DNA of 52,768 nt. Source: a virus. Its lineage: Duplodnaviria > Caudoviricetes. The first letter of the stretch is position 1. The number at the start of each line of letters is the position of its first letter. Location: the IMG/VR virus record IMGVR_UViG_3300030104_004723, positions 1-52,768 of that record; one strand, given 5' to 3'. Shown piece after piece: positions 5,907 to 52,768 of the stretch. The translations under genes and the position numbers were made by a program. Under the pieces are notes generated by a model. It worked only from the letters and a program-made list of their open reading frames with translations, was not told where the DNA came from and ran no database searches.

Positions 5907-7427
5907 ATGTCAACGTTTAATGGCGACATTGTAAACTTAACGAATTTAGGTGTTACTGATGTAGCAGGCAACGGCCCTGGTGCTGGTACTGGTTTAGATA
6001 CTGGCGATTTAAGGCGAAAGTATAACTTTGGCGACAGAGTTTCAGAGCTTGCTATAGCACAAGACCCATTTTTTCGTTTCGTAAGCAAAGTAAGCAAAAA
6101 ACCAACGGATGACCCTCAATTCAAATTTACTGAAAAAAGGGATTCATACCACAAAAGATACGCGTACGTAGGTGCAGTATATGATGGGTCAGCATTTGAT
6201 GATGATTCAGATATGGCTGCAGCAAAAAGTGCAGGTGATACTGTAAAAGTACGTATGATAACTGATTATAAAAATTCAGGTAATATTCAAAATATCTTCG
6301 GAAATACTTCCCAAGAAATTAAAATAGGTGCTTCTGGCACAATGCCTAAATTTTTCTTACCAGGTCAAATAGTAAAAATACCAACAAATTCAAGTGCAGC
6401 AGGTAGTGCACCTGATGATTATATGTTGGCTAAAGTAAACGTAGTAACTGAATATGCAGGTGCAGGTTCATATAATGACGCTACTACAACAACATCAAAT
6501 AATCCTGACATGGTGCAATTAGATTGTACTGTTGTTAAAGGCGGTGGAAGATATTTATCAGCTACTGCAAGTATTGATGATGCAAGTACTGTAACACCAT
6601 CTGATGATGTTATTCATAGTGCTTTAGAACCAATGAGAAGTTACGTGGTAGGTTCTGCTCATGAAGAAGGAAGTGGATATCCTGAAACATGGAAAGACCA
6701 ACCATATGCAACTAACTATGGAAGAACTCAAATCTGGAAAACTTCAATGGCTATGTCAAACACAGCTCGTGCAACTTCATTAAAATATGAAGGTAACGAA
6801 TGGGCAAGAGTTTGGAAATCAAAGCTAGTTGAACATAAATGGGATATGGAATCTTCATTGTTATTTGGTTCTCAAAGTGATGACTACTATACTACTCAAG
6901 GTGCTGTAGATTATATATTAACATACGGTAACCAGTTTAGCTTAGATACAGCTACTAAAACTGCTGATGATTTCTTGGATGATATGTCTAATTTCTTAGA
7001 CCCAAGATATAACAACGGTGGTGCAACAGTATATTTCTGCGATACAGCAACATATAACTGGATGCATAAACTTGGTGGCTACTTTAAGAATAATCTAGAA
7101 ATATCTTCAAACTTTAGAGCTGATTTTGCTATGACTGGCAAGAAAAAAGTTCTTGGTGTAGATATTACTACATTCTCAACACCTTATGGTGATATGAATG
7201 TGGCTAGAAATATTCACTTAGATGGTACTAATGTTAAATTACTTGGTATAAACATGAAGAATTGTGCTTACAGACCGTTAGTTGGTAATGGTTTAAATAG
7301 GGACACTTCAGTCTACGTTGGTGTGCAAACACTTGAAAACTCTGGGGTCGACAGAAGAGTAGATTTAATCTTAACAGAAGCTGGGATGGAATGGTCAATG
7401 CCTGAATCTCATGCGGTCTGGAAATAG
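5907..7427 (+). CDS. Major capsid protein (HK97 fold, DUF5309/SU10-like)
   Basis: NYGRTQIWKTS, EHKWDMESSLLFG, TPYG and DLILTEAGME segments; follows scaffold; SD AAGGAG at 5896-5901. Confidence 0.88.
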   Translation: MSTFNGDIVNLTNLGVTDVAGNGPGAGTGLDTGDLRRKYNFGDRVSELAIAQDPFFRFVSKVSKKPTDDPQFKFTEKRDSYHKRYAYVGAVYDGSAFDDDSDMAAAKSAGDTVKVRMITDYKNSGNIQNIFGNTSQEIKIGASGTMPKFFLPGQIVKIPTNSSAAGSAPDDYMLAKVNVVTEYAGAGSYNDATTTTSNNPDMVQLDCTVVKGGGRYLSATASIDDASTVTPSDDVIHSALEPMRSYVVGSAHEEGSGYPETWKDQPYATNYGRTQIWKTSMAMSNTARATSLKYEGNEWARVWKSKLVEHKWDMESSLLFGSQSDDYYTTQGAVDYILTYGNQFSLDTATKTADDFLDDMSNFLDPRYNNGGATVYFCDTATYNWMHKLGGYFKNNLEISSNFRADFAMTGKKKVLGVDITTFSTPYGDMNVARNIHLDGTNVKLLGINMKNCAYRPLVGNGLNRDTSVYVGVQTLENSGVDRRVDLILTEAGMEWSMPESHAVWK

Positions 7428-17500: not shown

Positions 17501-18900
17501 TTCCAGGATTAAAATTTGACGGAATTGGAAATACTACTTTTGGAGCTTCAGGATTTGCATATGAAATCTCTGAAAACAATGACAGTCTTCCTGGAGCTAT
17601 GGCTGACTTTGAACAAGTAAGTAGTGGTGGAGTTGACTGGACAGGAACTTGCAAGTTTTATGCATCTGCTATATTTAGTGATGGTTCTGAAACCTTACCA
17701 ATACATAATTTTCATACAGATAATACTAGCAGAATTCCAATGAGTATTAATTTTACTCCTTCTAGTGATGAAGACCCTATGGATGATTCTTTAAAGTTTA
17801 GATTTGCAGTAAGGCCTTTTGCGAACGGTGAATATGTTTTAGATAATTTAAATGTAATAGGTTATCATTTTTATTACACTAATTCTGAAGAAAATTTTGA
17901 TACATTTTGGAGTTTAGGTAAAGTTACTTGGGGAGAAGGTTTTACTCCATCAAATCAAATATCTTCTACAGATACAGTAGAACAATCTTCTAGTATTCCG
18001 TTTTCAAGATATATAAATGATGCAACTGGTATTAATAATAATACTTTTGTTTTAGATAATGGAGGAAGTCAGTATTATATATTTTCATCAATGCCTAAAT
18101 TACATACATTTGAAACATTGCATGGATATTCACCATATAATGTTACTTTAAATGCAAGATATAAAGCACATTGTATAGCAGGAAGAAGAAGTTTTATAGG
18201 CAATGTTGGTATTAAAGATAAATTAGGAAGTGATATGAATTATTATAATGACAAAATGATAATAAGCCCTGTTAATCAACTTGACACTTTCCCTTATCCG
18301 TATAATGAAATAACAGTTGATTCTAGTGATGGAGATGAAATAGTTGAATTAGAATCTGTTGGAGATAGAGTTTTGCAATTTAAAAAGAACATTTTATATA
18401 TATTGAATATAGCAGCAGCGGTACCTTCAGAATATTATTTAGAAGATAAATTTAAGTTTAGAGGAGCTCAAAGTAAAGAGCATATTGTTAAAACTGCTGA
18501 TGGAATATTTTGGGTTAATATTCACGGAGCTTTTTATTATGACGGAGAAACAATAACAGATTTAACATTAAGTGGAGATGAAGAAGATAATAAACTTAGA
18601 ATAGATAAAGGGGCATGGAAAGATTTTGTAAATTCAGATACTTTAGTAGGATATGAACCTTTTACTGGAGAATGCTTTGTAATTAAAAAACATACTCAAA
18701 CAGTAGAAGCTGATGGAGATTGTTACGTATATAATTCTAAGTTAGACAATTGGAGTTATGGTAAGGGTAGATTTTATACAGGAGGAACAACAGATAGCCC
18801 TAGACATATGTCAAATATAATTAATATGGGAAATAATAATCAAATGGTATATGTAGTAGATTTTGAAGCAGGTGATGTTGAATCAAGGATTCCTGTATAA
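14533..18900 (+). CDS. Tail nozzle/stabilisation protein (tail tubular B-like) with large insertions
   Basis: N-terminal FDGGLN...DL..NE..ELVDV motif and C-terminal beta-propeller-like blades (GIFWVNIHGAFYYDG). Confidence 0.7.
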   Translation: MADNREIWKIDKFDGGLNDATDAKDLKSNEFAELVDVNIEEKGSISSMGHSEDSSIASQTVVPIGIHAGKGLHSFFSDKSMFVDTSINSWLPVVTLANASQGSYASMTFSLSSLLWLFPPTDGDNTSTIGNDADRPYKGDLKMQLGLWVDNQFTPVGGNGEFEFMAIHGDGGDNSNVLTVLSDSTTWEGVKGDVSTNLFDTPTYYKYTDINEYGIPSSAAGLMYYPGIYTQLWPSIELWKNNENRIAGRYWNQKSGSIDSSIADIYDFGNNYLINNAPNSPFARHLINSEGPDIGSLYADFFWDDIYNWNDGTQVQENDIDKWRATTYWDNRNIFSTPVPGRKANYGVGYCLSKGVFDNNIPNANNIKKHLPYAYGNSDIPIEEYDYTQTGTIAGYFKGNRILGKEYVCFPHPDTGNLLSMSQPQAMHYYGWAGWNSIAHHLINAINNYSGTNSSNNFNAKFTHYQYLKNPTSDITSDDNRNLLGKVNSVKSYTNRIDDTITITSNVRGSHLNGVKLAVNLTSANVTDVGGTALTQVPQRTLHALYQSDPLRGTITSNITSTAETFTTNKETAKYLKLNDVIKVENASDATEYEFMFIKGIVGSSGPLFTVNVDRAFRGPFQGTIDTDTLGIARSFSSGAKISKFEIHPMGYESASNAQWGLTSGLDNEEGHARDWGAGTYIVGEKELHGGSEVDVAHKVRIYFGGNQNEGDIATFEIVNSINLDGENRWSQVLDSGPEINAANFAAHIDANTQILGVHQEGYGQDLTSEDNYYGMWYVDVESNVLGVSNVFDLRTFIFPNAIWNDKILTNTDEEYTVIMHKMKEWGHDFGLALDDVGQTKLVGMSIFSKAQNSWITPTTPVSGDNEATWAHQLGWYEKFEVGDGDDPFNIGTYPEPSKPYFWSDSSELRIIETNFNLDNLNKVLKFIDVRHWFSNILKDLGDAYTDNNTVYDIMDEIGEAGNLQFWGFSLSDVDRSWKYSALDTSSEKFPGLKFDGIGNTTFGASGFAYEISENNDSLPGAMADFEQVSSGGVDWTGTCKFYASAIFSDGSETLPIHNFHTDNTSRIPMSINFTPSSDEDPMDDSLKFRFAVRPFANGEYVLDNLNVIGYHFYYTNSEENFDTFWSLGKVTWGEGFTPSNQISSTDTVEQSSSIPFSRYINDATGINNNTFVLDNGGSQYYIFSSMPKLHTFETLHGYSPYNVTLNARYKAHCIAGRRSFIGNVGIKDKLGSDMNYYNDKMIISPVNQLDTFPYPYNEITVDSSDGDEIVELESVGDRVLQFKKNILYILNIAAAVPSEYYLEDKFKFRGAQSKEHIVKTADGIFWVNIHGAFYYDGETITDLTLSGDEEDNKLRIDKGAWKDFVNSDTLVGYEPFTGECFVIKKHTQTVEADGDCYVYNSKLDNWSYGKGRFYTGGTTDSPRHMSNIINMGNNNQMVYVVDFEAGDVESRIPV

Positions 18901-19316
18901 TGAAAGTAATTAGTTTTAAAAAATGGAATTCAAATCCTCAAAATAGTTATAATTTTAAATTAGTAACTAAGTTAACTGACCTTGGTTCTCCTGACGGATG
19001 GAAAACTATTTTAGGTTTTTATCTTAATATAAATAAAAACAGCCATTATACAGCTGAAAGCCCCGCTAATTTATTTTTAACTTTTTCTTACAGGACATCT
19101 ACTGGAGAAGAATGGAAAGATATAACTTCTGTTACTCAAGTAAATCCTAGAGGAACAACTTTAATAGAAGAATTATTTCAAATCCCTATAAAAAAAATAA
19201 AACATATACAATTAAAAATTGAAGGAGGGCATGTTAAAGGTAATATAACTATAAATGATTTAGGTTTGTTTTATAGAAAATACAGAGGAAGTGGAGCTTC
19301 GACATTAGATGAATAA
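18900..19316 (+). CDS. Tail protein (resembles the C-terminal domain of tail tubular B)
   Basis: TKLTDLGSPDGWK...IQLKIEG...INDLGLFYR pattern; TAATG coupling. Confidence 0.55.
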   Translation: MKVISFKKWNSNPQNSYNFKLVTKLTDLGSPDGWKTILGFYLNINKNSHYTAESPANLFLTFSYRTSTGEEWKDITSVTQVNPRGTTLIEELFQIPIKKIKHIQLKIEGGHVKGNITINDLGLFYRKYRGSGASTLDE

Positions 19317-20574
19317 AAAAATTGCATCAAAAATAAATACAAAACAAAAGAAAATATCTACAGGAAATACCGCTCCTACTAGATTTGAAGGTTTTGACGG
19401 AGAACTTACTATAAGACATATATTAGGTCAAGGTATTTTTCTTTTTTATAAATGGGGAGGGAAGTGGTATTCTGCTAGATTTTCACAATACACAAGAAGC
19501 ACTCATGAAAGAAATGAACCTGTATACTTACCTAAAGGAAAAAAGCCAAAATCCATAGGAGAAATTACTATGGATAATGATAATAAAATTAAAATTAAAA
19601 AATCATCTGCAGTTACTCAGGTTGTTTCTATGGACAAGGATAAGAAACTTGATGTAAGTGAAATACAAACATCAAGAACATCTACAACAAGCATGACGAC
19701 AGATAATGCAGGTAATCCTGACTTACTTCTTGTAAATACATCAGGACATGTTAATTTGCATTTACAAACAAGAAATTCAGACTATGACCCTTTTATAATA
19801 TATTCTCATTTAAATGCTGGGGAAACAACTACATTAAGGCAATGGGTTATAGGCATGGATAATAACGATGGAGATGTATTTAATTATTGCTATAAAAATT
19901 CAGGAACTACTCCTTTAACTCCTTCTACAACAACTTCATCTGAAGTAAAAATGGCTTTAACTACTGGAGGAGCTTTAACTACAACAGGAACAATTACAGG
20001 TCTTAAATTAGCAGCAACTAATACAGCAGCTGCAACTAGCGATACAGATAAGTTTCTTGTTGTAGGAGAATCAGGAGCTACTAGCGAGGTAAGATATAGA
20101 ACAGGAGCTCAAGTTAGAAGTGATATAGGAGCAGGCACAGCAGACTATTACTACGAAACAAAAGTAGTCAATTGGGTTAATAGTGGTACATCCCAAATAT
20201 ATTTACCGATAGCAGGATATATTTTTGAACAAACAGGGACAGGTAGTAGAAACGAATATGTTGGTATGGTTGCACCTTATAATGGGACAGTAGAAAAATT
20301 TATGTTTAGATGTGAAGAAGCGCAAGATGGTACATTAGAATTTGATATTTTAGAAGCTAGTGATGGAACAGAAAATCCTGGCACTACAATAGGTGTTAAA
20401 GATACAGTAATAGATATAGCAGATGATACTAGTGTAGAGGTTACTTTTAGTAGTATGACAAGTGGAACAAATGCATTAGTTAAAGGAAGAATATATGCAT
20501 TTAGAGTAGATACACCATCTGCTCCTAATGATGCAAATGGAACATTAGTTTTTAAATGGGATATAACAAGTTAA
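19309..20574 (+). CDS. Tail fibre/spike protein
   Basis: Thr-rich beta segments, RTGAQVRSDIGA fibre motif, C-terminal beta-sandwich. Confidence 0.65.
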   Translation: MNKKIASKINTKQKKISTGNTAPTRFEGFDGELTIRHILGQGIFLFYKWGGKWYSARFSQYTRSTHERNEPVYLPKGKKPKSIGEITMDNDNKIKIKKSSAVTQVVSMDKDKKLDVSEIQTSRTSTTSMTTDNAGNPDLLLVNTSGHVNLHLQTRNSDYDPFIIYSHLNAGETTTLRQWVIGMDNNDGDVFNYCYKNSGTTPLTPSTTTSSEVKMALTTGGALTTTGTITGLKLAATNTAAATSDTDKFLVVGESGATSEVRYRTGAQVRSDIGAGTADYYYETKVVNWVNSGTSQIYLPIAGYIFEQTGTGSRNEYVGMVAPYNGTVEKFMFRCEEAQDGTLEFDILEASDGTENPGTTIGVKDTVIDIADDTSVEVTFSSMTSGTNALVKGRIYAFRVDTPSAPNDANGTLVFKWDITS

Positions 20575-36938: not shown

Positions 36939-39900
36939 TACAAAATGTAGTATATTAAGAGAAGGGGCTGAAATAAATAAACAGCTTGACGATGCTGTAT
37001 TAGAAGCTCAGATTGATGAGGCTAATTTATTAGGCGTTGAGGAAATAAATCAACTTATACAAGATAACTTATTAGAAAAAGCAATAAAAGTAGGAAAAGA
37101 AAAAGGTATTGATGTAGGAGAAGATACTGAAGAAATAGAAGAAGCTGTAAGGTATTTAGTAGGAGAGTTAGTTCCAGAAGAAAAGATAGACAAAGTAGTA
37201 AAAAAGAATTATGGAGAAGCTGGAGATAGGTATTTATTAGCTACTAAAATAAATGCTTTAGTTAATGGAAATCCTATTATAGGTCAAATGGTTCATGAAA
37301 TGATTTTACAATTTATGCCTTCTGGTAATATTTCATCATCAACATCTCAATGGGTTAAAGGGGAGCAAATAAATGTTCCAAATTTTGCAGGCATTAATAA
37401 AAACCTTACCCCTGAACAACAATTATTAAGAACTTTAAAAGTTCAAGAAATAGGTACATTAAAAGTTATATATAACGAAGCATTAAACATGGCTACTGCA
37501 GGAACTGGAGAAAGCTGGGCAAAAGGAGTTATAGGTAAAATAGTATCTAAATTCTATAATCCTAAAGAAAAAGGTAAAACAGAACGTAGTGGTGCATGGA
37601 TGAAATTTACAAGTCATGCAACTCGTTATTTTAATAATATAGAAAAAAATATAGAATACTTTCTTAAAGATAGAAAAGTAAAACAGCCAGATGGTTCTCA
37701 AAAAACATTTAAAGGAATGGACAATGTTTTAAGAGATGTTAATACATTATCTGAAAAAGTAAATATCAAGGTTCATAAAAACGATTTAAGAACAAAAGGT
37801 GAATTATTTACTGAGTTTTTTGTAATGAATATGACTGGAGAAATTTATTTTGATAAAAAAACCAATAAATTTATGATACATCAAGATTATGGCCCGTTAA
37901 GAGATGCAGATAATAAGGTTAGATTATGGCCTGATGAAACTATAATGCATGGTTTTTCAAATCCTATAGAACTTTCAAAATATAGAAATGGATTATATTC
38001 TGTAAAATTTAAAACTAAATCTCAATTCAATTCTTTTACCAAATTAAAAAATGATGCTACAAAAGTTAATGAAAGAGTATTTAAAGAGACTAGAAAGAAC
38101 TATGAAAATTCAGTAAAACTATTAAAAAAAGCAATAAAAAAACATTTTGTTGGCTTACCTGATGCTCAAATAGAGTTGTTGTTTTTTGAAGACTGGAAAG
38201 TAAAACAACATAAAGAGCTTTTAAATGAACTAAAAGATTTAGATAAAAAAACAGGCACTAAATATATTAATACATATAATCTTTTTAAAGATACTTTCGG
38301 AAATATAGCAAGTGTTAATCTTTATTTAAATAGAGTTAATGAATCTCAAGGCAAGGGACAAAGAAAACATTACTGGCCTACTATATATCCTATACAAACT
38401 ATGACTATAATGTGGGATTCTTATATTGTAGACATGCAAAGAGAACTTAAAATAGCAAAAGATAATTTAGAAAACTTTAGAAAAGGCGAATACGATAAAT
38501 TAATAGCTAAGAAAAAATTAAACCGTAAAGAGTTTAAAAAAGACTTAAAAAAAGAAGTAGCTAAATATAATTCAATAGTTGATAGAGCTATAGAAATAAA
38601 AGACAATAGAGAAAATAAATATAAAGAAGATACTTTATCTGCTAGAGAGATACCTTTTGCTAGAGACCACAGACATTTAAAATCTATAACAAATGCTTTT
38701 GATATTAGATTAGGCAGAAAAGACGGGGCAGTATATAGAGATTATTTAATGCAAATAATGAGTTCTATAGAAAGAAATCTTTTTACAGTATCATTGTTAG
38801 ATAGTATAAATATTGCTCAATCTGATGTTGTTGTTCGAGCATTGGTAAATTATTATAAGGTTCCTTTTGCTGACCCTAGTGTGGAGGGTGGAATAATAAC
38901 TTCAAGTGATGAATCTGTGTCAGCTATGTTAAATAAAGTTGGTATCAAAATATCACCTGAAATTTTAAATAGATTTAACAGAAGAATTAATAAATGGTTA
39001 ACAGCTTCTAAATTAGGCGGAATAAGTACATCAATATTAAATAGAAGTGCTATTGTACACAATATATTAGATAGAAATAGGCAGGAAACTTCTAGAGCTA
39101 AACAAGTTCTTTCAAATAACAGAGAAGAAGTTGAAGAATTTTTAACAAAAATTAATATAGCTGCATTCCAAGATTTTTTTAGTTCAAATTTAATTAATGG
39201 TAAAGCAGGAATTGAATTAGATAATGCTACTATAGGCAAAATATATATGATTATGCTTAATTATCCAGAATCAAAACAAAGATTTAAAAACATGGGTATT
39301 TCTAAGCTAAAAGATTTTCTAATTAAAAACAAAGTTTCTGAAACTAAAATAAAAGCATGGGCTAAAGATAAAAAAGCATTAAATATATTGTCAGAAAAAG
39401 CTTCTGCTATACAAATGCAAAAAGAATTTTCTAAAGTTCTTGAATTGTCTCCTATGTATAATTTAAAAATAAAAAGTATTATGAGTCAAAATGCTTCTAA
39501 AGAAAGATTAAAAATTATAGCTCAATCTAAAAAAGATACAATGCTAAATAAGTTTGTAGGCTTTGCTATTACTCAAGAATACGAATTAAATAGATATGCA
39601 AATATGTTCAATTGGCAATGGACTTTACCTTCTAAAATATATAAATCTACAGGAGATTGGTTTAGCTTTTTAGGAAGTGTTAGGAAATCAGTGAAAATGA
39701 CAATGAGCGATAGTGAAGCTTATATTAGAAGTATATCTGCAATATCTGGAATATTAAAAGCTCAAGAATTAGGCTTTCTAAGAAATGATATAAACTTTTG
39801 GGAGTTTCAAGGTAAGGATTTAGAAGCTGCATCTGAAATAGGAAACTTATTAGCAGACTTTACTAATATGGGATTATCTACTACAGATATGGCTCAAATA

Positions 39901-47304: not shown

Positions 47305-47606
47305 TATTCTGTCTCCTTAACTTTAGTTAACAATGATGGGCTACATCTCCATTTTACCCATGGTCTTCCTTCTTCTTTTACTCCTACGCTTTTACGATTA
47401 ACTTTTTCAATAATACCTGTGTAAGTTTCTTTACTTAAACCTACACCTTTAACCCAAGATACTTTTTCTCCTATTCTAAAGCCTTCTAAATCTTTAGCTT
47501 GCAAGTAATTTCTTCTATCTTGTATTGCATGTACTAATTCAGTTAATTGTTCTTGACTCATTCCTTTTACATCTTCTAATAAATCTAGAAAGTTATCTAC
47601 TCCCAT
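47304..47606 (-). CDS. Hypothetical protein with SH3-like C-terminal barrel
   Basis: FRIGEKVSW...GIIEKVNRKSVGV...WRCSPSLL; likely start 47606 after GGAGG. Confidence 0.6.
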   Translation of the reverse strand: MGVDNFLDLLEDVKGMSQEQLTELVHAIQDRRNYLQAKDLEGFRIGEKVSWVKGVGLSKETYTGIIEKVNRKSVGVKEEGRPWVKWRCSPSLLTKVKETE

Positions 47607-47760
47607 ACTTATCCTCCAATTCATCGTAGTCTTTTATTATTTTAATAAATTTATCTTTACTTAAACCTGTTGCTGCTCTTGCTCTAGGGTCAAACATGTT
47701 AAAAGCTCCTGATGTTTGAATAGTTACAAAAGCATTAAAGTCTTCTTTACTTATTTCCAT
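47593..47760 (-). CDS. Small protein (DUF5049-like SGAFNMFD motif)
   Basis: IQTSGAFNMFD; likely start 47760 after GGAGG. Confidence 0.55.
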   Translation of the reverse strand: MEISKEDFNAFVTIQTSGAFNMFDPRARAATGLSKDKFIKIIKDYDELEDKYGSR

Positions 47761-47924
47761 TATTCTTCCTCCCACATTAAGTTTACGTTATAAATTTCAG
47801 CTACTTTTTTTAATAATATAGTTGTATAATGTTTTTTATCTGAAGTCATTTCATCTACAAATCCATTTACAAATAAATAATCAATAGCCTCCATACAGTC
47901 TGATTTAGTTACTTTATTGTTCAT
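47760..47924 (-). CDS. Hypothetical protein (54 aa, not in the ORF track)
   Basis: MNNKVTKSDCMEAIDYLF...; SD AGGAG; TAATG coupling. Confidence 0.55.
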   Translation of the reverse strand: MNNKVTKSDCMEAIDYLFVNGFVDEMTSDKKHYTTILLKKVAEIYNVNLMWEEE

Positions 47925-48060
47925 CTTTTCTCCTGATTAATTTCCATTTACCTAATCTACATACGTTTGAATACATTTTAAAGATTACTGCTTGAGTGTC
48001 TAATTCGCCATCTTCCCACAAATCTTCTTCTGGTATTTCTTCCCAATTTTTAAGATTCAT
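47914..48060 (-). CDS. Hypothetical protein (48 aa, not in the ORF track)
   Basis: MNLKNWEEIPEEDLWEDGELD...; SD AAGGAG. Confidence 0.5.
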   Translation of the reverse strand: MNLKNWEEIPEEDLWEDGELDTQAVIFKMYSNVCRLGKWKLIRRKDEQ

Positions 48061-48083
48061 TTAATCTCCTTAATTAAAATTTA

Positions 48084-49101
48084 TGGGAGTGTCAATAGTG
48101 ATGCTAAACAAAGGGCGAAAGGAGACAGACCATGAAAGTCCATCAAAAACCCATAATACACCACGTCTGACCTCACGGTATCAGCTCTCCACTCCCAATT
48201 ATATACAAGCTTTTTTTTCGTTTAATAGTAGTGCCTCAAGGCTTTATCACTCCTAACAACGATTTAACGTTGCGGACTCGCTTTCGCTTCTTTTAGAGGT
48301 TCCTGGAATAAACTTAGTGTAACTTCTCAGGACTGCTACTAAACTAGTTACATACTTGTAATTATTATGAGAGAGACCACGCTTGAGGGTGATTAATCAG
48401 ATTACTGTAATTAACCTCTTAACGAATGGTGGTTTTTGCCGTAACTCTCTCAATTTTATATAAACCTACACTTTTTCCTCGATAGCTTCTGCTTACGGCG
48501 TAAACCGCCTATATCCACTATCTCCCTCCATCTCCTCGGTTTATATCTCATCCGACAAGTTATCACAGACTTATTTGTTTGCTTACCTTGTTTTATTACA
48601 GGGTCCATGGTTCATTACGGCAACAACCTGTAAATTTATGAGAGCCTCACATATTCCTTTGCCTTAGGAGGGCCTCTTAGCTATTTCCTAAGGACTTACA
48701 GGACCAGTTATTGGCTCTCAATTGTTTGCCTAACATCTGTGGACCTTGGTTAGGCGTTTTATAAATTAGCTACTATGTAGCATTGCATGTCCACCTGCTT
48801 TTATAATTATTCTAAATCTAAGGGACAGAACACTTATATGATGTCGAGTGTTATGTAGAAAGTAGGTGAGTAATCCTGTCCCTTTAAGTATATAATCATG
48901 TTCACAGCCAGTCTAGAAGGAATCAACTGTGAAGTTTGCCGTAATTAACGACATTAAAGACTGCTTAATAAGTACCGCCTTAATTGGCTAGTTTTATTAA
49001 GTTCTTCCTGTTTATAGTGTTGTGGCAGTTACTGAGAGGCATCCCTTGTATCCTAGGAGTACAATTCGTTCGCATCGCGGGTGCTTTGTCCAACTATAAA
49101 C
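48084..49101 (-). ncRNA. Tandem array of about 11 stem-closed structured RNA modules
   Basis: No ORF of 60 aa or more; consecutive 6-9 bp closing inverted repeats separated by AT-rich linkers; strand inferred from flanking genes. Confidence 0.6.
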
Positions 49102-49119
49102 TATTTTATGTGACGCTAA

Positions 49120-49263
49120 TCACACCGAATCTTGTTTTCTTTTTTCAGTAAAAGCAAGAATTATACTAGCAACGAGATGTCTTTCTTCCATAGTTAAAAA
49201 CCTATTATTAGTTTTCATTATATCAAAGAACTCCTTCTCGCCCATTATATCTGTGTCTACCAT
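49120..49263 (-). CDS. Hypothetical protein (47 aa, not in the ORF track)
   Basis: MVDTDIMGEKEFFDIMK...; SD GGAGG; overlaps the upstream stop. Confidence 0.45.
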   Translation of the reverse strand: MVDTDIMGEKEFFDIMKTNNRFLTMEERHLVASIILAFTEKRKQDSV

Positions 49264-49745
49264 ATTTCAAATCCTCCACTTTGTATACAGAAATCAGCGA
49301 AAGCTTTTACATTCTCTACATCAAATGGATATTTGTATTCTTTATCTTCTTGGTCTAACTCTACTTCTTTCTGATGTGCTGCAACTGTGCCATCTTCTAT
49401 TAATGATAAAAGTTGAACACCTAGTTTAGCTGCACTATCTGCATTTAATCCTTTACCATCATTATAATGACCTCCATTATGAATATCATCACTTATTAAA
49501 TCAGGACAATGGTAAGCACAGAAATCCCATAAGGGTCTCCACCACCAACAATTATTACGAAAGTATATACCTGGATTAGCTTTATTCCATTCATTATCTT
49601 CTTTCCAGTATTGTTCTTTCTCTTTATCCCAATTCTTGTCCTCTTCTCTTTCAGGCCAAGTCTTATCTTCCCATTTAGTTAGCATTGGAAAATCTTTCCT
49701 TGATTTATTTATTGTAGGGTCTAAACCCGATACATCCATTCCCAT
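49257..49745 (-). CDS. Hypothetical phage protein
   Basis: YFRNNCWWWRPLW and SGGFEIW motifs; SD AGGAG. Confidence 0.7.
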   Translation of the reverse strand: MGMDVSGLDPTINKSRKDFPMLTKWEDKTWPEREEDKNWDKEKEQYWKEDNEWNKANPGIYFRNNCWWWRPLWDFCAYHCPDLISDDIHNGGHYNDGKGLNADSAAKLGVQLLSLIEDGTVAAHQKEVELDQEDKEYKYPFDVENVKAFADFCIQSGGFEIW

Positions 49746-49747
49746 AA

Positions 49748-49993
49748 TTACTCTCCTATGTTATTTATCTTTAAGAAATCCATATGTTCAAAGCCTTTTT
49801 CATCTTTAAACCATACTACATCAAAATCTTTACCTTCTTCAGCTATGCCCATACCATCACATATATGACATAATTGAAAATGTACATTACCACCTCTTGC
49901 ATTAGTAAAATCAACAAAGTCAACACCTTCTCCATCACAAGCTGGGCATTTATCTCCTGTTATATTGCCATGTTTGTCTATTTTTGTATACAT
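49748..49993 (-). CDS. DnaJ-type zinc-finger protein
   Basis: CPACDGEG and CHICDGMG (two CxxCxGxG repeats). Confidence 0.7.
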   Translation of the reverse strand: MYTKIDKHGNITGDKCPACDGEGVDFVDFTNARGGNVHFQLCHICDGMGIAEEGKDFDVVWFKDEKGFEHMDFLKINNIGE

Positions 49994-50195
49994 TATTCTC
50001 CTTTTAATGTTTAATTATAGAAGTGAGCTCTACAAACATATCTCTCTTTAATTTATAGAGCCACTCCGCCTCGAGCCATTCCACTTACAAGCGAAGCAAG
50101 AATGGTATGAGAGACACAATATATCATCATCCCTTTTTTCACTTTCGGCGACTATTATATCCTATTGCTAAATATAATAACGGCTTCGCTTATTG

Positions 50196-50271
50196 TTGCG
50201 GAGGTTGGAATCGAACCGACAATAACTCCTAATATATAAATTAGGTTAGCCTACCAAGGCTTGTCTCCGCA
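50196..50271 (-). tRNA. Degenerate tRNA/tRNA-like RNA (8-nt anticodon loop UUUAUAUA; identity undetermined)
   Basis: TGCGGAG/CTCCGCA acceptor stem, AGCC-TTGGTA-GGCT D arm, CCTAA/TTAGG anticodon stem, GTCGG-TTCGATT-CCAAC T arm; no encoded CCA. Confidence 0.7.
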
Positions 50272-50279
50272 CAGATTAG

Positions 50280-50756
50280 TTAAAAGTTACCATCAGCAAC
50301 TTGGAAACATGTGAGTCCTAATCCATTACGCCACATATCTACGACTTGATTCCTATCGTCAAAGACACAAAGGACATTATACCTTTCCATTATCTCTTTG
50401 CCTATTTCAAACTTGACAAAAGCATCTTTACGGTAATCACCTTCATTACGAAAGACAAATTGGTTAAATTCAGATTCACCTACATACTGATTAACCCAAG
50501 CTTTAGTTAGTTCTGCAACATTTTTAAACTGATGCTCTTCAAATGTTACATTCTCTCTAGCTGATGTAAACACTACATAAATAGGTTCATCATGTATTTT
50601 AGCATAATATCTAACAGTAGCTAATAATACATCTATTACAGGAACATTTGGTTCATCATTGTAAGCTTTATGATACTCGAAAGGTGTTCTTTTACCCTTC
50701 ATTAGTGCGACAGTACCATCAATATCGCATATTATACATTTACTCTTCATCATCAC
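50280..50756 (-). CDS. HAD-family phosphatase related to the 3'-phosphatase domain of T4 polynucleotide kinase
   Basis: CDIDGTVA, FTSAR, RKDAFVK and FDDRNQVVDMWR motifs; no kinase domain. Confidence 0.88.
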   Translation of the reverse strand: MMMKSKCIICDIDGTVALMKGKRTPFEYHKAYNDEPNVPVIDVLLATVRYYAKIHDEPIYVVFTSARENVTFEEHQFKNVAELTKAWVNQYVGESEFNQFVFRNEGDYRKDAFVKFEIGKEIMERYNVLCVFDDRNQVVDMWRNGLGLTCFQVADGNF

Positions 50757-50815
50757 CTCTTTTTAAATTAAACTTTTGTCCCAACCTTAATTATACTAGC
50801 TGGGACATATTATAT

Positions 50816-50998
50816 TTAGCAACTTATGTACTGTAACCACTTAATTACGTACCATATAAACCATATCATACATATATTTATTAGTATGGCTATGTAATAT
50901 GTCATCATTTCAAGTGGGTCTGTTTTGATAATAGATATAATACCTTTTATTAATTTATCTATTCTTAATGTTGCTATTATGGCTCTCAAATAAGACAT
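50816..50998 (-). CDS. Small membrane protein
   Basis: One hydrophobic helix YYIAILINICMIWFIWYVI; SD AAGGAG. Confidence 0.55.
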   Translation of the reverse strand: MSYLRAIIATLRIDKLIKGIISIIKTDPLEMMTYYIAILINICMIWFIWYVIKWLQYISC

Positions 50999-51019
50999 TA
51001 TAGTCTCCTTTTATAAATA

Positions 51020-51789
51020 AATTCTAATAAAGAGTTGAGATTATACTCTTTACGCTAGCTCTTTTGGACTACATTCCATGTTCGCAGGTTTTGTCCGTAT
51101 CCACTTAGTTTGCACTAAGTACACTAGCAGGCTCAGTAGTTATAGACTACCACTCTTAACGATTAAGTTATCTCAGCAACTACTTACATCTAGATAAACG
51201 TGCCCGCCTACCTAGTGCTTTCATTACAAAACATAATATGCCTTGTGAGCATAAAATGCACCTCATTCAGGTTCACTGTGAGGTATTAGAGCCCTTTGCT
51301 CTTAATCGCTGTAGCTGTTTTACATTATGTTATCATTATGTTTAGTTTGACAACGGCATTTATATTGAGTCGCTTACAGAGAAGCTTGCTACCCTATTAA
51401 GGTAGTAAATACTTCGCTCAATACTTCAATAGACACCTGGTGAGTGAATATTAACATGTTTCTGGTGTCGCCCTTTATCACTAAAGGATTAACCATAACA
51501 TTGGAGTACAGCCTTACTACCACAGCTTAGCTTATTACTCCTACGCCTTATCTTATTGTATGTTACCATACTCAACACCATTACCATTTGGTGTATAGCT
51601 CTTCTGTTGCACACAGAGTTACTACATAGACGCTTGTATCTTTGGGCTCAATGAGTGCAATAACATTGTCTTGTTATCACTTTGGGCATATTAACTATGC
51701 TTATCCTAACGACATGATACTGCCGTTTCTTACGAAATCTTTGCATACTTGGGTAACAAGGAGTATGCAATCCCCGTGGCTATAACCTG
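51020..51789 (-). ncRNA. Large (~770 nt) structured non-coding RNA, GOLLD/ROOL-like candidate
   Basis: No ORF of 60 aa or more; about 20 hairpins, long-range helices, GNRA loops on the - strand, 3' terminal pseudoknot. Confidence 0.6.
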
Positions 51790-51939
51790 TTAAAGATTAT
51801 ATTTATGACCATTATCACATGTCCATATGCCATTAACTAATTTCAAGTGTTTAGTCTTATTGTTGACTATTACTTGAACAGTAGTGTTATTACTACCATA
51901 GCTAATGATTTTATGAACATTGAATGTTTTCTTGCTCAT
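51790..51939 (-). CDS. Hypothetical protein (49 aa, not in the ORF track)
   Basis: MSKKTFNVHKIISYGSNN...; AAAGGA upstream. Confidence 0.5.
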   Translation of the reverse strand: MSKKTFNVHKIISYGSNNTTVQVIVNNKTKHLKLVNGIWTCDNGHKYNL

Positions 51940-52007
51940 ATCAATCCTTTTGTTAGTTTTATTTGATTGATTATAGCCTATTAATATATAAATTTTATGT
52001 TTTTAAA

Positions 52008-52036
52008 TAAAGATAAGGGGGAACTATTGTCCCCCC
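52008..52036 (-). terminator. Intrinsic terminator
   Basis: Minus strand GGGGGGA-caatagt-TCCCCCT followed by TATCTTT, just after ORF 52049-52429. Confidence 0.65.
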
Positions 52037-52048
52037 AATCAGTTGTTT

Positions 52049-52429
52049 CTAGAATCCTGCACTTTGAACTGATGCTGATTCTTGCTTGCTTTTAGTTGGA
52101 AACAATTCAACGTAGTGAGCATTGGTAACAATGTCATTCGTTGGTTCATGTGCCCAAGCAACGTTGCCGTGCTCTTCAATGAAAGCCTCTGCCATTTCAT
52201 CAGTCATCTTGTCGAACCAAGCAAAGATTGCAGGGTCGTTAGATGCTTGTGACTTGTCGGCATTGTTGTTGCGAAGAAATGAGATACTATAAGAGTGACC
52301 ACCAATGTTACCATTTGACCTTGGTATCCTGTTGGTAAAGCACCAATCTTCGCCTTTCGTGCCGTCTTTCTTTTGCCAAGTCTTCTTGACTAGTTCTACT
52401 CTGTAATAATCTGTTATAAGTTGTGACAT
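52049..52429 (-). CDS. Hypothetical protein, first gene of the - arm in this window
   Basis: 126-aa ORF with its own terminator; more GC-rich than the bulk of the genome. Confidence 0.65.
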   Translation of the reverse strand: MSQLITDYYRVELVKKTWQKKDGTKGEDWCFTNRIPRSNGNIGGHSYSISFLRNNNADKSQASNDPAIFAWFDKMTDEMAEAFIEEHGNVAWAHEPTNDIVTNAHYVELFPTKSKQESASVQSAGF

Positions 52430-52768
52430 GTCGTGTCCCTTTCTATGTTAAGAGTGTAGGTGCTGTTTATTTATAACAACACGCACACTTGTATGAATAA
52501 AGCTGTGGCTCTGCTATGCTATCGCTGTTTGGATGTAACCGTATTTATATCTGTAACCAAGCATAAGCAAAGCCTATTAAATGTTATTAGATGGTAGTCT
52601 CAACGAGCAAACCAAGCGTCTTTGCACCTATGCTCTATTACAGAGGAACGGCTCTAACATCTAATTGAATTGAATTATAACTAAAACGCATATAAGAAAA
52701 ATGTTTTTAGGGTGGCGTATAAGGATAAATAAGACCTCCACTAAAATCCCCCAATTTTTGAAACCTTT

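Follow-up and report, generated by a model that had tools for sequence, protein, structure and literature searches.

The tRNA region of phage T4 holds stable RNAs of unknown role, RNAC and RNAD (PMC3014915), and GOLLD and ROOL are large, ornate phage RNAs of 600-800 nt (Rfam RF02032; 10.1101/2024.12.08.627333 / PMC12286853); in T4-type phages, PeSL cassettes flank protein genes with a strong sigma-70-like promoter and a terminator hairpin (PMC2839356, Arbiol et al. 2010). Here we describe a gene-free stretch at 48061-49127, on the minus strand of an uncultured phage, that is very likely a set of autonomous structured-RNA cassettes, and neither one repeat array nor a row of decayed genes. The window, by which we mean the whole stretch of DNA analysed, is IMG/VR virus record IMGVR_UViG_3300030104_004723, of 52,768 bases and an estimated 94% completeness.

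Like phage tRNA islands, the array appears as a cluster of small stable-RNA genes in one transcription unit, on one strand, that varies between relatives; tRNA genes lie in or next to the arrays of three related loci (L046, L051 and L142), and here a tRNA-shaped RNA is found 1 kb upstream. Unlike the genes of such islands, no unit is a tRNA: the families span 85-233 nt, are pseudoknotted or multi-branched and each carry a freely variable distal hairpin, and nothing indicates that they are processed by RNase P or RNase Z. With GOLLD and ROOL the array shares that its structured RNAs are phage-encoded, marine and near tRNA genes, and that they combine a conserved core with a variable periphery, whereas it matches neither in sequence or structure and its units measure 38-233 nt rather than 600-800 nt. 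Shuffling, gain, loss and reordering in a plastic early-gene region, at short AT-rich joints by stem-loops, are common to the array and to PeSL cassettes (PMC2839356). The array differs in that its stem-loops are themselves the cargo, as complex conserved RNAs, in that promoters are not enriched, and in that it has no terminator tails.

The put RNAs of phage HK022, putL and putR, are cis-acting antitermination elements of two stem-loops, present in one or two copies per genome. One unit of the array, which we call M3, is likewise a small, strongly conserved structured RNA found in one or two copies, in sense orientation and upstream of long operons; this is a comparison of position and copy number only, and M3 differs in having a single stem, a large internal loop and a variable arm, and no promoter was found at a fixed distance upstream of it. 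REP/BIME, ERIC and Correia/NEMIS elements are intergenic, transcribed hairpin repeats that occur in many copies per genome and in both orientations. The array units are also intergenic, hairpin-forming and present or absent between relatives, but their families are single-copy, always in sense orientation, and have invariant unpaired cores and covarying stems.

Nine folding units without coding capacity

The gene-free stretch consists of nine stem-closed, minus-strand folding units, grouped as M1 to M7, with M2 and M4 comprising two units each. A reading made from the letters alone, hereafter the sequence-only reading, had proposed a tandem series of discrete small RNA modules closed by eleven perfect inverted repeats. 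All eleven are present, and we give them below, as stems 1 to 11, with the units in which they lie. Perfect inverted repeats of at least 7 bp within 130 nt number 20, against 7.5 +/- 2.7 in dinucleotide-type shuffles, an excess of about 2.7-fold that none of 200 shuffles reached; those of at least 8 bp number 8, against 1.9 +/- 1.4. The modules are indeed discrete, mutually different and non-coding, except that stems 9-11 turned out to be helices of one 233-nt RNA, M1. M1 also begins at 49125, past the upper limit of 48084-49101 that had been set for the array; the other coordinates stand.

Between 48061 and 49127 none of the six frames is open (translation table 11), each holding at least 18 stops, and because all three stop codons occur in every frame, no single stop reassignment would open one. 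The longest minus-strand open reading frame (ORF) is 50 amino acids (aa), which agrees with the earlier statement that none reaches 60 aa, and no conserved ORF was found in the array homologues; on these grounds a coding reading was rejected. The sequence-only reading had also set CRISPR aside on the ground that the interiors all differ. Indeed, there is no tandem or CRISPR-like repeat, Tandem Repeats Finder returned only a weak 13-nt x 1.9 match (score 36), and the profile of each unit matches the window once; with no tandem repeats and with single-copy units, the stretch has the repeat structure neither of a CRISPR array nor of a type III ToxI-like repeat array.

Of the two follow-up tests that had been suggested for the folds, covariation succeeded for M1, M3, M6 and M7, which thus combine covariation on one strand with a lack of coding capacity, as expected of structured non-coding RNA families; M4b is near-invariant, and M2 and M5 have too few sequences. 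Comparison with shuffled sequences gave minus-strand fold z-scores from -4.05 (M3) to -1.21 (M4a) and separated the strands for some units only. The full-length minimum free energies of the two strands, -273 kcal/mol for minus and -267 kcal/mol for plus, are similar and uninformative.

Covarying stems and near-invariant loops in M3 and M6

M3 (48634-48724, minus strand), in which stem 6 (TGAGAGCC/GGCTCTCA, 48639-48720) lies, comprises a closing stem, P1, of ~12 bp, a near-invariant internal loop with the strands AAYAACUGGUCCURUAAGU and CAAAGGAAUAUGUGA, and a hypervariable distal hairpin, P2. It has a fold z-score of -4.05, and its covariance model, R1, finds one copy in the window. We collected 78 distinct instances of 63-157 nt, most of them by a scan for a 20-mer of the 3' core combined with a regular expression. 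Over 79 aligned rows P1 is 92% paired and its five outer pairs covary; one pair, for example, is AU in 49 rows, UA in 26, GC in 3 and UG in 1, and is unpaired in none. At the base of P2 all seven pairs covary as well. The covariation score of 0.332 compares with 0.133 in shuffled alignments (0 of 500 reached it) and with at most 0.095 when partners are slid, and in inner P1 every one-sided change (11 of 11) yields a G-U pair. Some 30 unpaired bases between the two stems hardly vary, while the distal arm varies freely; the same core is seen in 18 distinct instances from loci fetched through flanking proteins, which are free of collection bias.

The sequence-only reading had noticed a frame common to three units, AAUU-G(A/G)GAG...CUC(U/C)C-AUAA, and had likened its stem to a tRNA acceptor. 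The frame is real, but it is not acceptor-like, because the M3-family stem is ~12 bp long and pairs the presumed 'discriminator' residue, a column (5-171) that is paired in 79 of 79 rows.

One M3 copy, at L101:1672-1825 on the plus strand, carries a T-arm-like GGGUUCGAAUCCC and other tRNA-like parts in its variable arm, in which ARAGORN calls no tRNA. A divergent M3-like variant, with the closing stem UUGAGAAUC and the loop AGUAAUUGGUCCUGUAAGUCC, occurs from L210:3076 and from L219:3829 onward; the 20-mer scan would miss it. A loop of the form AAYA/UGA, beside P1 in M3 and also seen in M7, was compared by hand with the K-turn consensus; we do not claim it as a K-turn.

M6 (48204-48360, minus strand) is a 157-nt pseudoknotted RNA closed by UACAAG/CUUGUA, which is stem 2 (TACAAG/CTTGTA, 48204-48360), and carries a variable hairpin and a conserved GAAAAAAAAGC tail; its fold z-score is -3.35. 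A 19-mer of its core was found in 50 IMG/VR stretches, which reduce to 39 distinct instances. The alignment of 36 distinct sequences gives five helices with 34 pairs, which are 97.5% paired; 16 of the pairs change on both sides, with a covariation score of 0.407 against 0.141 in shuffled alignments (0 of 500) and at most 0.081 when slid. One helix, 18-23/47-52, crosses the others; it is 100% paired, has double-sided changes at three pairs, and forms a pseudoknot together with an invariant hairpin. Two pairs tell the strands apart, one being U-G in 36 of 36 sequences and another G-U in 18 and A-U in 18. The G-U pairs of M3 and M6 fix the minus strand, and the minus-strand assignment of the sequence-only reading is borne out both by this pattern and by the orientation of all matches.

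M1, M7 and the smaller units

M1 (48893-49125, minus strand) is a 233-nt multi-helix RNA that overlaps the stop codon of the ORF at 49120-49263. It begins with a 5' hairpin, GUGUGAU-UAGC-GUCACAU, and continues with a long-range stem (stem 11, GTTTATAGT/ACTATAAAC, 49010-49101), a hairpin with the palindromic loop UCCUAGG, a variable hairpin (stem 10, CTTAATAA/TTATTAAG, 48964-49001) and a 3' hairpin (stem 9, TTCACAG/CTGTGAA, 48901-48933). Its alignment profile matches 12 distinct stretches among the homologous loci. In an RNAalifold alignment of 12 sequences, in which the window row was trimmed and lacks the first hairpin, 23 of 35 predicted pairs survive changes on both sides; the long-range stem is kept in 11 of 11 with at least six different sequences, the loop UCCUAGG is invariant in 11 of 11 on a covarying stem, and every forward frame has at least four stops in all 11 sequences examined. 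The palindromic loop is the sole hint at oligomer formation among the units.

M7 (48084-48197, minus strand; alignment of 14 sequences) is closed by UGGGAGUG/CACUCCCA, that is, stem 1 (TGGGAGTG/CACTCCCA, 48084-48197). Its 5' side has a conserved GAGAG and a GUGA-capped hairpin and its 3' side UUUGA, and it ends 20 nt before the Shine-Dalgarno sequence of the ORF at 47914-48060. Changes on both sides are survived by 9 of its 15 predicted pairs, and the minus strand has a fold z-score of -2.44, the plus strand one of -1.08.

M4b (48458-48546, minus strand; stem 4, ATATAAACC/GGTTTATAT, 48458-48546) has the closing stem UAUAAACC/GGUUUAUA, a variable central hairpin and invariant purine-rich strands, GAGGAGAUGGAGGGAGAUA ... 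CGAGGAAAAAGUGUAGG, with a fold z-score of -3.56. Among 12 aligned sequences only 2 of 11 pairs show compensatory change, since the core is almost invariant. M4a (48596-48633, minus strand; fold z-score -1.21) is a small hairpin, UUACAGG...CCUGUAA, corresponding to stem 5 (TTACAGG/CCTGTAA, 48596-48633), and its motif follows M3 or M6 in L006, L011, L012, L021 and L051. By eye, an M4a look-alike can be seen inside the P2 arm of the M3 copy in L146. Pairing between units, of the M4a loop UUGCCGUAA with UUACGGCAA in M1 and M5 of the window, was noticed by eye and rejected: the M1 and M4a of relatives do not keep it, and by our own arithmetic chance alone would give about two complementary 9-nt pairs per 1 kb.

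M5 (48368-48452, minus strand; fold z-score -2.80) is closed by UGAGAGAG/CUCUCUCA, which is stem 3 (TGAGAGAG/CTCTCTCA, 48368-48452); its 5' core, UUGAGAGAGUUACGGCUAAAACCACCAUUCGUUAA, is kept in four of four sequences, and L119 has a full M5 with a different central hairpin. The M2a/b block occupies 48727-48883 on the minus strand. M2a (48820-48883, minus strand; fold z-score -2.94) is a long hairpin, AGGGACAGG...CUGUCCCUU, corresponding to stem 8 (AAGGGACAG/CTGTCCCTT, 48820-48883), and is found only in the nearest relatives, within long matches on three contigs (L046/L070/L092, L075/L187 and L002/L069). M2b (48727-48819, minus strand; fold z-score -1.37), made of small hairpins that include GCCUAAC...GUUAGGC (stem 7, GCCTAAC/GTTAGGC, 48728-48755), is the weakest unit and has homologues in near relatives only. 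Its loop GUCCAC is complementary to an upstream GUGGAC, a possible pseudoknot noticed by eye.

A further recurrent unit, starting with AAUGUAGUCAUGUCAGUCACGGA, follows M6 in L119, L197, L209, L215 and L223; together with the divergent M3-like variant, it means that there are more families than the seven named modules.

Exchange of units between phages

We fetched 74 relative loci through proteins that flank the array, 67 with a 162-aa protein and 8 with a 169-aa protein, L047 being found by both. Searched by nhmmer with the 1059-nt stretch, these loci yielded 59 matches. Every one is on the gene strand, and they group into blocks that correspond to the stem-closed units. The families of M1, M3, M4b, M6 and M7 recur in many uncultured marine phage contigs of ~50 kb, always oriented as the genes are and in varying order and combination; by these sequence matches, at least five units appear to belong to separate RNA families common to such phages.

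The blocks run M1-M6-M2/3-M7 in L002, M7...M1-M6-M3-M4 in L006, M3-M1 in L044 and M6-M1-M4 in L051, and in L015 the units lie kilobases apart, between genes. The differing order and the separation by genes show that the units are independent, and the cassette idea of the sequence-only reading holds in outline. In a relative's contig from run X12, position 48359 is joined to 48452, so that M5 is missing exactly, in a 92-nt gap with AATT at both edges. Units are thus exchanged between phages as whole cassettes at AU-rich joints. In L046 and L142, tRNA genes immediately precede M1 and M3, respectively; in L051 they lie ~1.15 kb ahead of the M6-M1-M4 array. In different phages, M1, M6 and M3 carry a small hairpin with a covarying stem, AGCCUCA-N-GGGCAAGUCCC-N-UGGACGA, nested in their variable arms (L015:3974, L051:3314, L098:9872 and at least eight other loci; it is absent from the window). 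With these inserts and the M4a-like hairpin in the M3 arm of L146, the families are nested as well as shuffled.

Within this phage group M3 is the core element, near-universal and present once or twice per genome. Its 20-mer occurs in at least 118 IMG/VR stretches, and model R1 finds M3 in 29 of 35 long records, at one or two copies each; among 15 records ascertained by protein alone it is found in 9, and in 9 of the 12 of those that are at least 90% complete. All remaining units are accessory, and the set in this window is unusually rich: by BLAST, 30 near-complete records contain M3 in 27 cases, M6 in 6, M4b in 6, M1 in 4, M5 in 1 and M7 in 0. A search of 185,579 prokaryote species genomes for the M3 20-mer gave three stretches, of which two are bare 20-mers in unrelated sequence and one is a full M3. 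The latter, at ~6175-6261 on the minus strand of L194 (PCBP01000024.1, 26.7 kb, from a Flavobacteriales metagenome-assembled genome), is identical to that of an IMG/VR phage contig; it may point to the host or reflect mis-binning of a phage contig, and it is not enough for a host to be named. A Bacteroidota host is made less likely by the strong Shine-Dalgarno sequences that these phages have.

Comparison with catalogued RNAs

A search of the whole window against Rfam 15 (4227 families) at gathering score returned nothing in the array, and 47500-52768 searched at E<=10 likewise gave nothing there. The check that the sequence-only reading had called for, cmscan, was run on 48040-49140 at E<=10 and gave a single chance-level match of 13.5 bits to an r-protein leader, on the plus strand. 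The array matches none of the GOLLD, ROOL, ribozyme or riboswitch models of Rfam, and 12 other loci (32.8 kb) yielded one tRNA only at E<=1. With blastn, the array, M3 and M6 had no match, or chance-level matches of 22-32 nt at E=7, among 50,697 GenBank phage records. We found no description of these RNAs in the literature, supplementary motif lists and alignments not being covered.

Several identities were tried and rejected. An array of tRNAs or tRNA-like RNAs does not fit, as ARAGORN finds none in 48061-49127 and none coinciding with any unit in the window and 20 loci, there is no tRNA-clan match at E<=10, and the M3 stem is ~12 bp. For a CsrA-type sponge, GGA occurs 22 times against 16.4 +/- 2.7 (11 of 300 shuffles reach this), and neither AGGA nor GGAG is significant. 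The units were also considered as cargo or partners of a GOLLD cage, an idea we dropped since GOLLD occurs in only 4 of 34 related records that carry modules, in 2 of them above the cut-off.

Genome setting and transcription signals

All genes near the array are on the minus strand, and the leftward arm runs, in order, through small ORFs, the GOLLD RNA, a PNKP-type phosphatase, a tRNA-shaped RNA, three ORFs and the gene-free stretch, downstream of which lie small ORFs, a Sak4-like gene and a primase-helicase gene. GOLLD (RF02032, 171 bits against a gathering score of 150, E 2.3e-46) matches through its 3' conserved half at 51032-51423, extending to about 51790, on the minus strand; ~2 kb from the array, it shares the RNA-rich leftward arm without being an array member. 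A promoter-like site near it, TGGACA-18-TATAAT (11/12), lies at 51825-51796, and a terminator-like hairpin at 52036-52017, just upstream of that site. The PNKP-type homologue (50280-50756) is phosphatase-only, and directly downstream of it lies the tRNA-shaped RNA (50195-50271, minus strand), which has an 8-nt anticodon loop, is called by ARAGORN as tRNA-??? with a four-base anticodon 'tata', and matches only tRNA-Sec in Rfam, below threshold (25.9 bits against a gathering score of 47). Immediately upstream of the array, at 49257-49745 on the minus strand, is the gene for the 162-aa protein with relatives in 67 IMG/VR loci; it falls into no family of Pfam or PHROG. The portal-region protein is matched only distantly, so this is a phage without a close cultured relative. 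Elsewhere in the window, three tiles of 1070 nt (18191-19260, 19261-20330 and 37451-38520) contain 9, 9 and 12 perfect inverted repeats of at least 8 bp, counts that equal or exceed the 8 of the array; all three sit in long ORFs.

Promoter-like sites over 47500-52768 are not enriched (18 against 21.2 +/- 4.0 in shuffles), and within the array the minus strand has a single terminator-like site, a weak hairpin of 5 pairs at 48781-48769. Promoters of the units' own at TATAAT-like linkers were rejected, as a start ~7 nt further on would fall inside covarying closing stems and the sites are not enriched; the array likewise lacks the enriched promoters and terminator tails of a PeSL-type cassette. 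With neither promoter nor terminator of its own, the array would be read through as part of a transcript that also takes in the small ORFs flanking it.

The stretch, whole or in part, is present in 20 public runs, all marine, three of which are RNA libraries of one study; shares of 0.14-0.22 in runs other than those compared by contig are given no weight; the RNA-library data are assembled contigs from runs chosen for the stretch and are uninformative on RNA ends, strand and level. In two of these RNA runs, from one sample, a contig identical to the window covers 48528-48705 and bridges M4b, M4a and M3; one of the two also has small contigs that fall in two ORF regions. The GOLLD region (51275-51734) is likewise covered by contigs of these two runs that are identical to the window, and the third run has a relative's contigs over M6, M4b-M3 and M1. 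There is no RNA-library cover over 49217-51097, from which we draw no inference. These contigs are a weak hint that the array exists as RNA.

Discussion

The finding is real in that the array is non-coding, structured, conserved and uncatalogued; this analysis contributes covariation for each family, the separation of core from accessory units, and the absence of a link to GOLLD. As a whole explanation, we favour, with some confidence, autonomous structured-RNA cassettes that act in trans from the minus strand of 48061-49127; the trans-acting binding role of the units, taken by itself, we put forward more tentatively. The array would be an untranslated part of an early or middle leftward transcript leading to the Sak4 and primase-helicase genes, in which each unit would fold alone during transcription. 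The families share a design, namely a closing stem, an adjoining near-invariant junction or internal loop and one or more freely varying distal hairpins, and this design suggests that the junction is the working surface, which would bind a conserved host or phage partner. For M3, near-universality and the invariant unpaired bases point to a specific conserved partner, and its core role may be tied to expression of the replication module. The accessory M1, M4b, M5, M6 and M7 may be comparable to phage tRNA or moron genes; we read them as optional RNAs for host takeover or counter-defence, which may be freed at AU-rich linkers. The sequence-only reading had proposed one transcript, cut at such linkers into many small RNAs that would serve as decoys, sponges or anti-defence RNAs.

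A bolder extension, which we think rather doubtful, would see a combinatorial 'RNA toolbox' of at least eight uncatalogued families, M6, M1 and M3 among them, serving as trans-acting takeover or counter-defence devices and forming a new class of RNA-only accessory genes. Here the pseudoknotted M6 would stand beside an M1 whose self-complementary loop could pair two copies, and the M3 scaffold arm would carry interchangeable cargo hairpins, including the tRNA-like domain of one relative; cassettes would be shuffled and nested like protein domains, and some may assemble protein-free, like GOLLD.

Several observations weigh against trans-acting cassettes. The fold z-scores of M1 (-1.42), M2b (-1.37) and M4a (-1.21) are modest, and for M3 and M4b they barely tell the strands apart. 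Homologues of M2 are too few for a covariation test, and M5, with four sequences, has covariation in 0 of 10 predicted pairs. The invariance of the 3' strand of M3, and in part of its 5' core, is partly imposed by the 20-mer and regular-expression collection. DNA carry-over is possible in the RNA-library contigs, which moreover come from runs chosen for holding the stretch. Lastly, M3 stands before a Shine-Dalgarno sequence and ORF in most of its contexts, and M4b, M6 and M7 often directly precede an ORF, positions that suit a cis-acting leader as well as a trans-acting RNA.

Such a cis role is the main rival; we judge it unlikely, if to be taken seriously. Each unit would be a leader or intercistronic element acting on its own transcript only: M3 could be a put-like antitermination RNA working across the long array and the replication operon, M4b could be a purine-rich ribosome standby site, and all units could be 5' or 3' stabilisers of messenger RNA. 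This would suit an array without promoter or terminator of its own, the copy number of M3 (one or two per genome), and the position of M4b, M6 and M7 directly before ORFs in several relatives and in the window. It would also suit the contexts of M3, since in 58 of 80 distinct ones a Shine-Dalgarno sequence and ORF follow within 90 nt, mostly 20-39 nt off, the downstream genes including primase-helicase (a cluster of 8), Sak4-like (2), Cas4-like exonuclease (1) and phrog_1221 (2). Yet the M3 stem ends ~10-25 nt before the Shine-Dalgarno sequence and overlaps neither it nor the start codon, and the downstream ORFs fall into 31 clusters of varied or unknown function; the same two observations led us to reject a metabolite riboswitch. 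Moreover, what comes after M3, M6 and M1 here and in several relatives is another RNA unit, not a gene, and some 30 invariant unpaired bases would be needless in a stabiliser.

Three further explanations fit less well than trans-acting cassettes, because of the independence, copy number, orientation and covariation of the units. Selfish intergenic mobile elements (MITE, REP, ERIC or Correia-like), whose terminal inverted repeats would be the hairpin ends, would account for the intergenic position, the inverted-repeat ends, the shuffled presence and absence between relatives and the 4-nt AATT on both sides of the M5 gap. They are very unlikely all the same, as every family is single-copy in the window and M3, at one or two copies in each of 29 records, is not proliferating; outer stem pairs covary where a terminal repeat would be conserved in sequence, orientation follows transcription in 59 of 59 matches, and the internal unpaired strands do not vary between phages whose flanking proteins share 30-50% identity.

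The whole 1.07 kb might also be one giant modular RNA of the GOLLD/ROOL kind with the units as domains, and in its favour the phage already encodes a GOLLD, an RNA-library contig bridges three units, and GOLLD itself has a variable 5' half and sometimes linker tRNAs (10.1101/2024.12.08.627333). We regard this as highly improbable: in relatives the units occur singly, reordered and separated by protein genes, no covarying helix links two units, and the distribution differs from unit to unit (M3 in 27, M6 in 6 and M1 in 4 of 30 records). Least probable of all are signals in single-stranded DNA (an origin, priming or packaging site, or hairpin promoters of a virion RNA polymerase, M3 above all), for although M3 is near-universal at one or two copies, often beside primase-helicase or Sak4, and DNA hairpins tolerate G-T wobbles too, the covarying multi-helix and pseudoknotted folds of M1 and M6 are characteristic of RNA, most units are accessory and shuffled in a way that does not suit an origin, orientation always follows transcription, and RNA-library contigs cover M3-M4b.

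Strongly covarying RNAs without known function, such as GOLLD, ROOL, OLE and raiA, are rare finds, each of which opened a line of work. Here, four covariation-supported families lie within one kilobase, all absent from Rfam 15 and from cultured phages, and they can be converted directly to covariance models for the annotation of marine viromes. M3 is a good candidate for structural and biochemical work. If it is true that the accessory units are counter-defence or takeover RNAs, the repertoire of RNA-only phage weapons would be wider; for these marine phages, the distribution of the units shows that folded RNA genes are exchanged as cassettes, as tRNA genes and small protein genes are.

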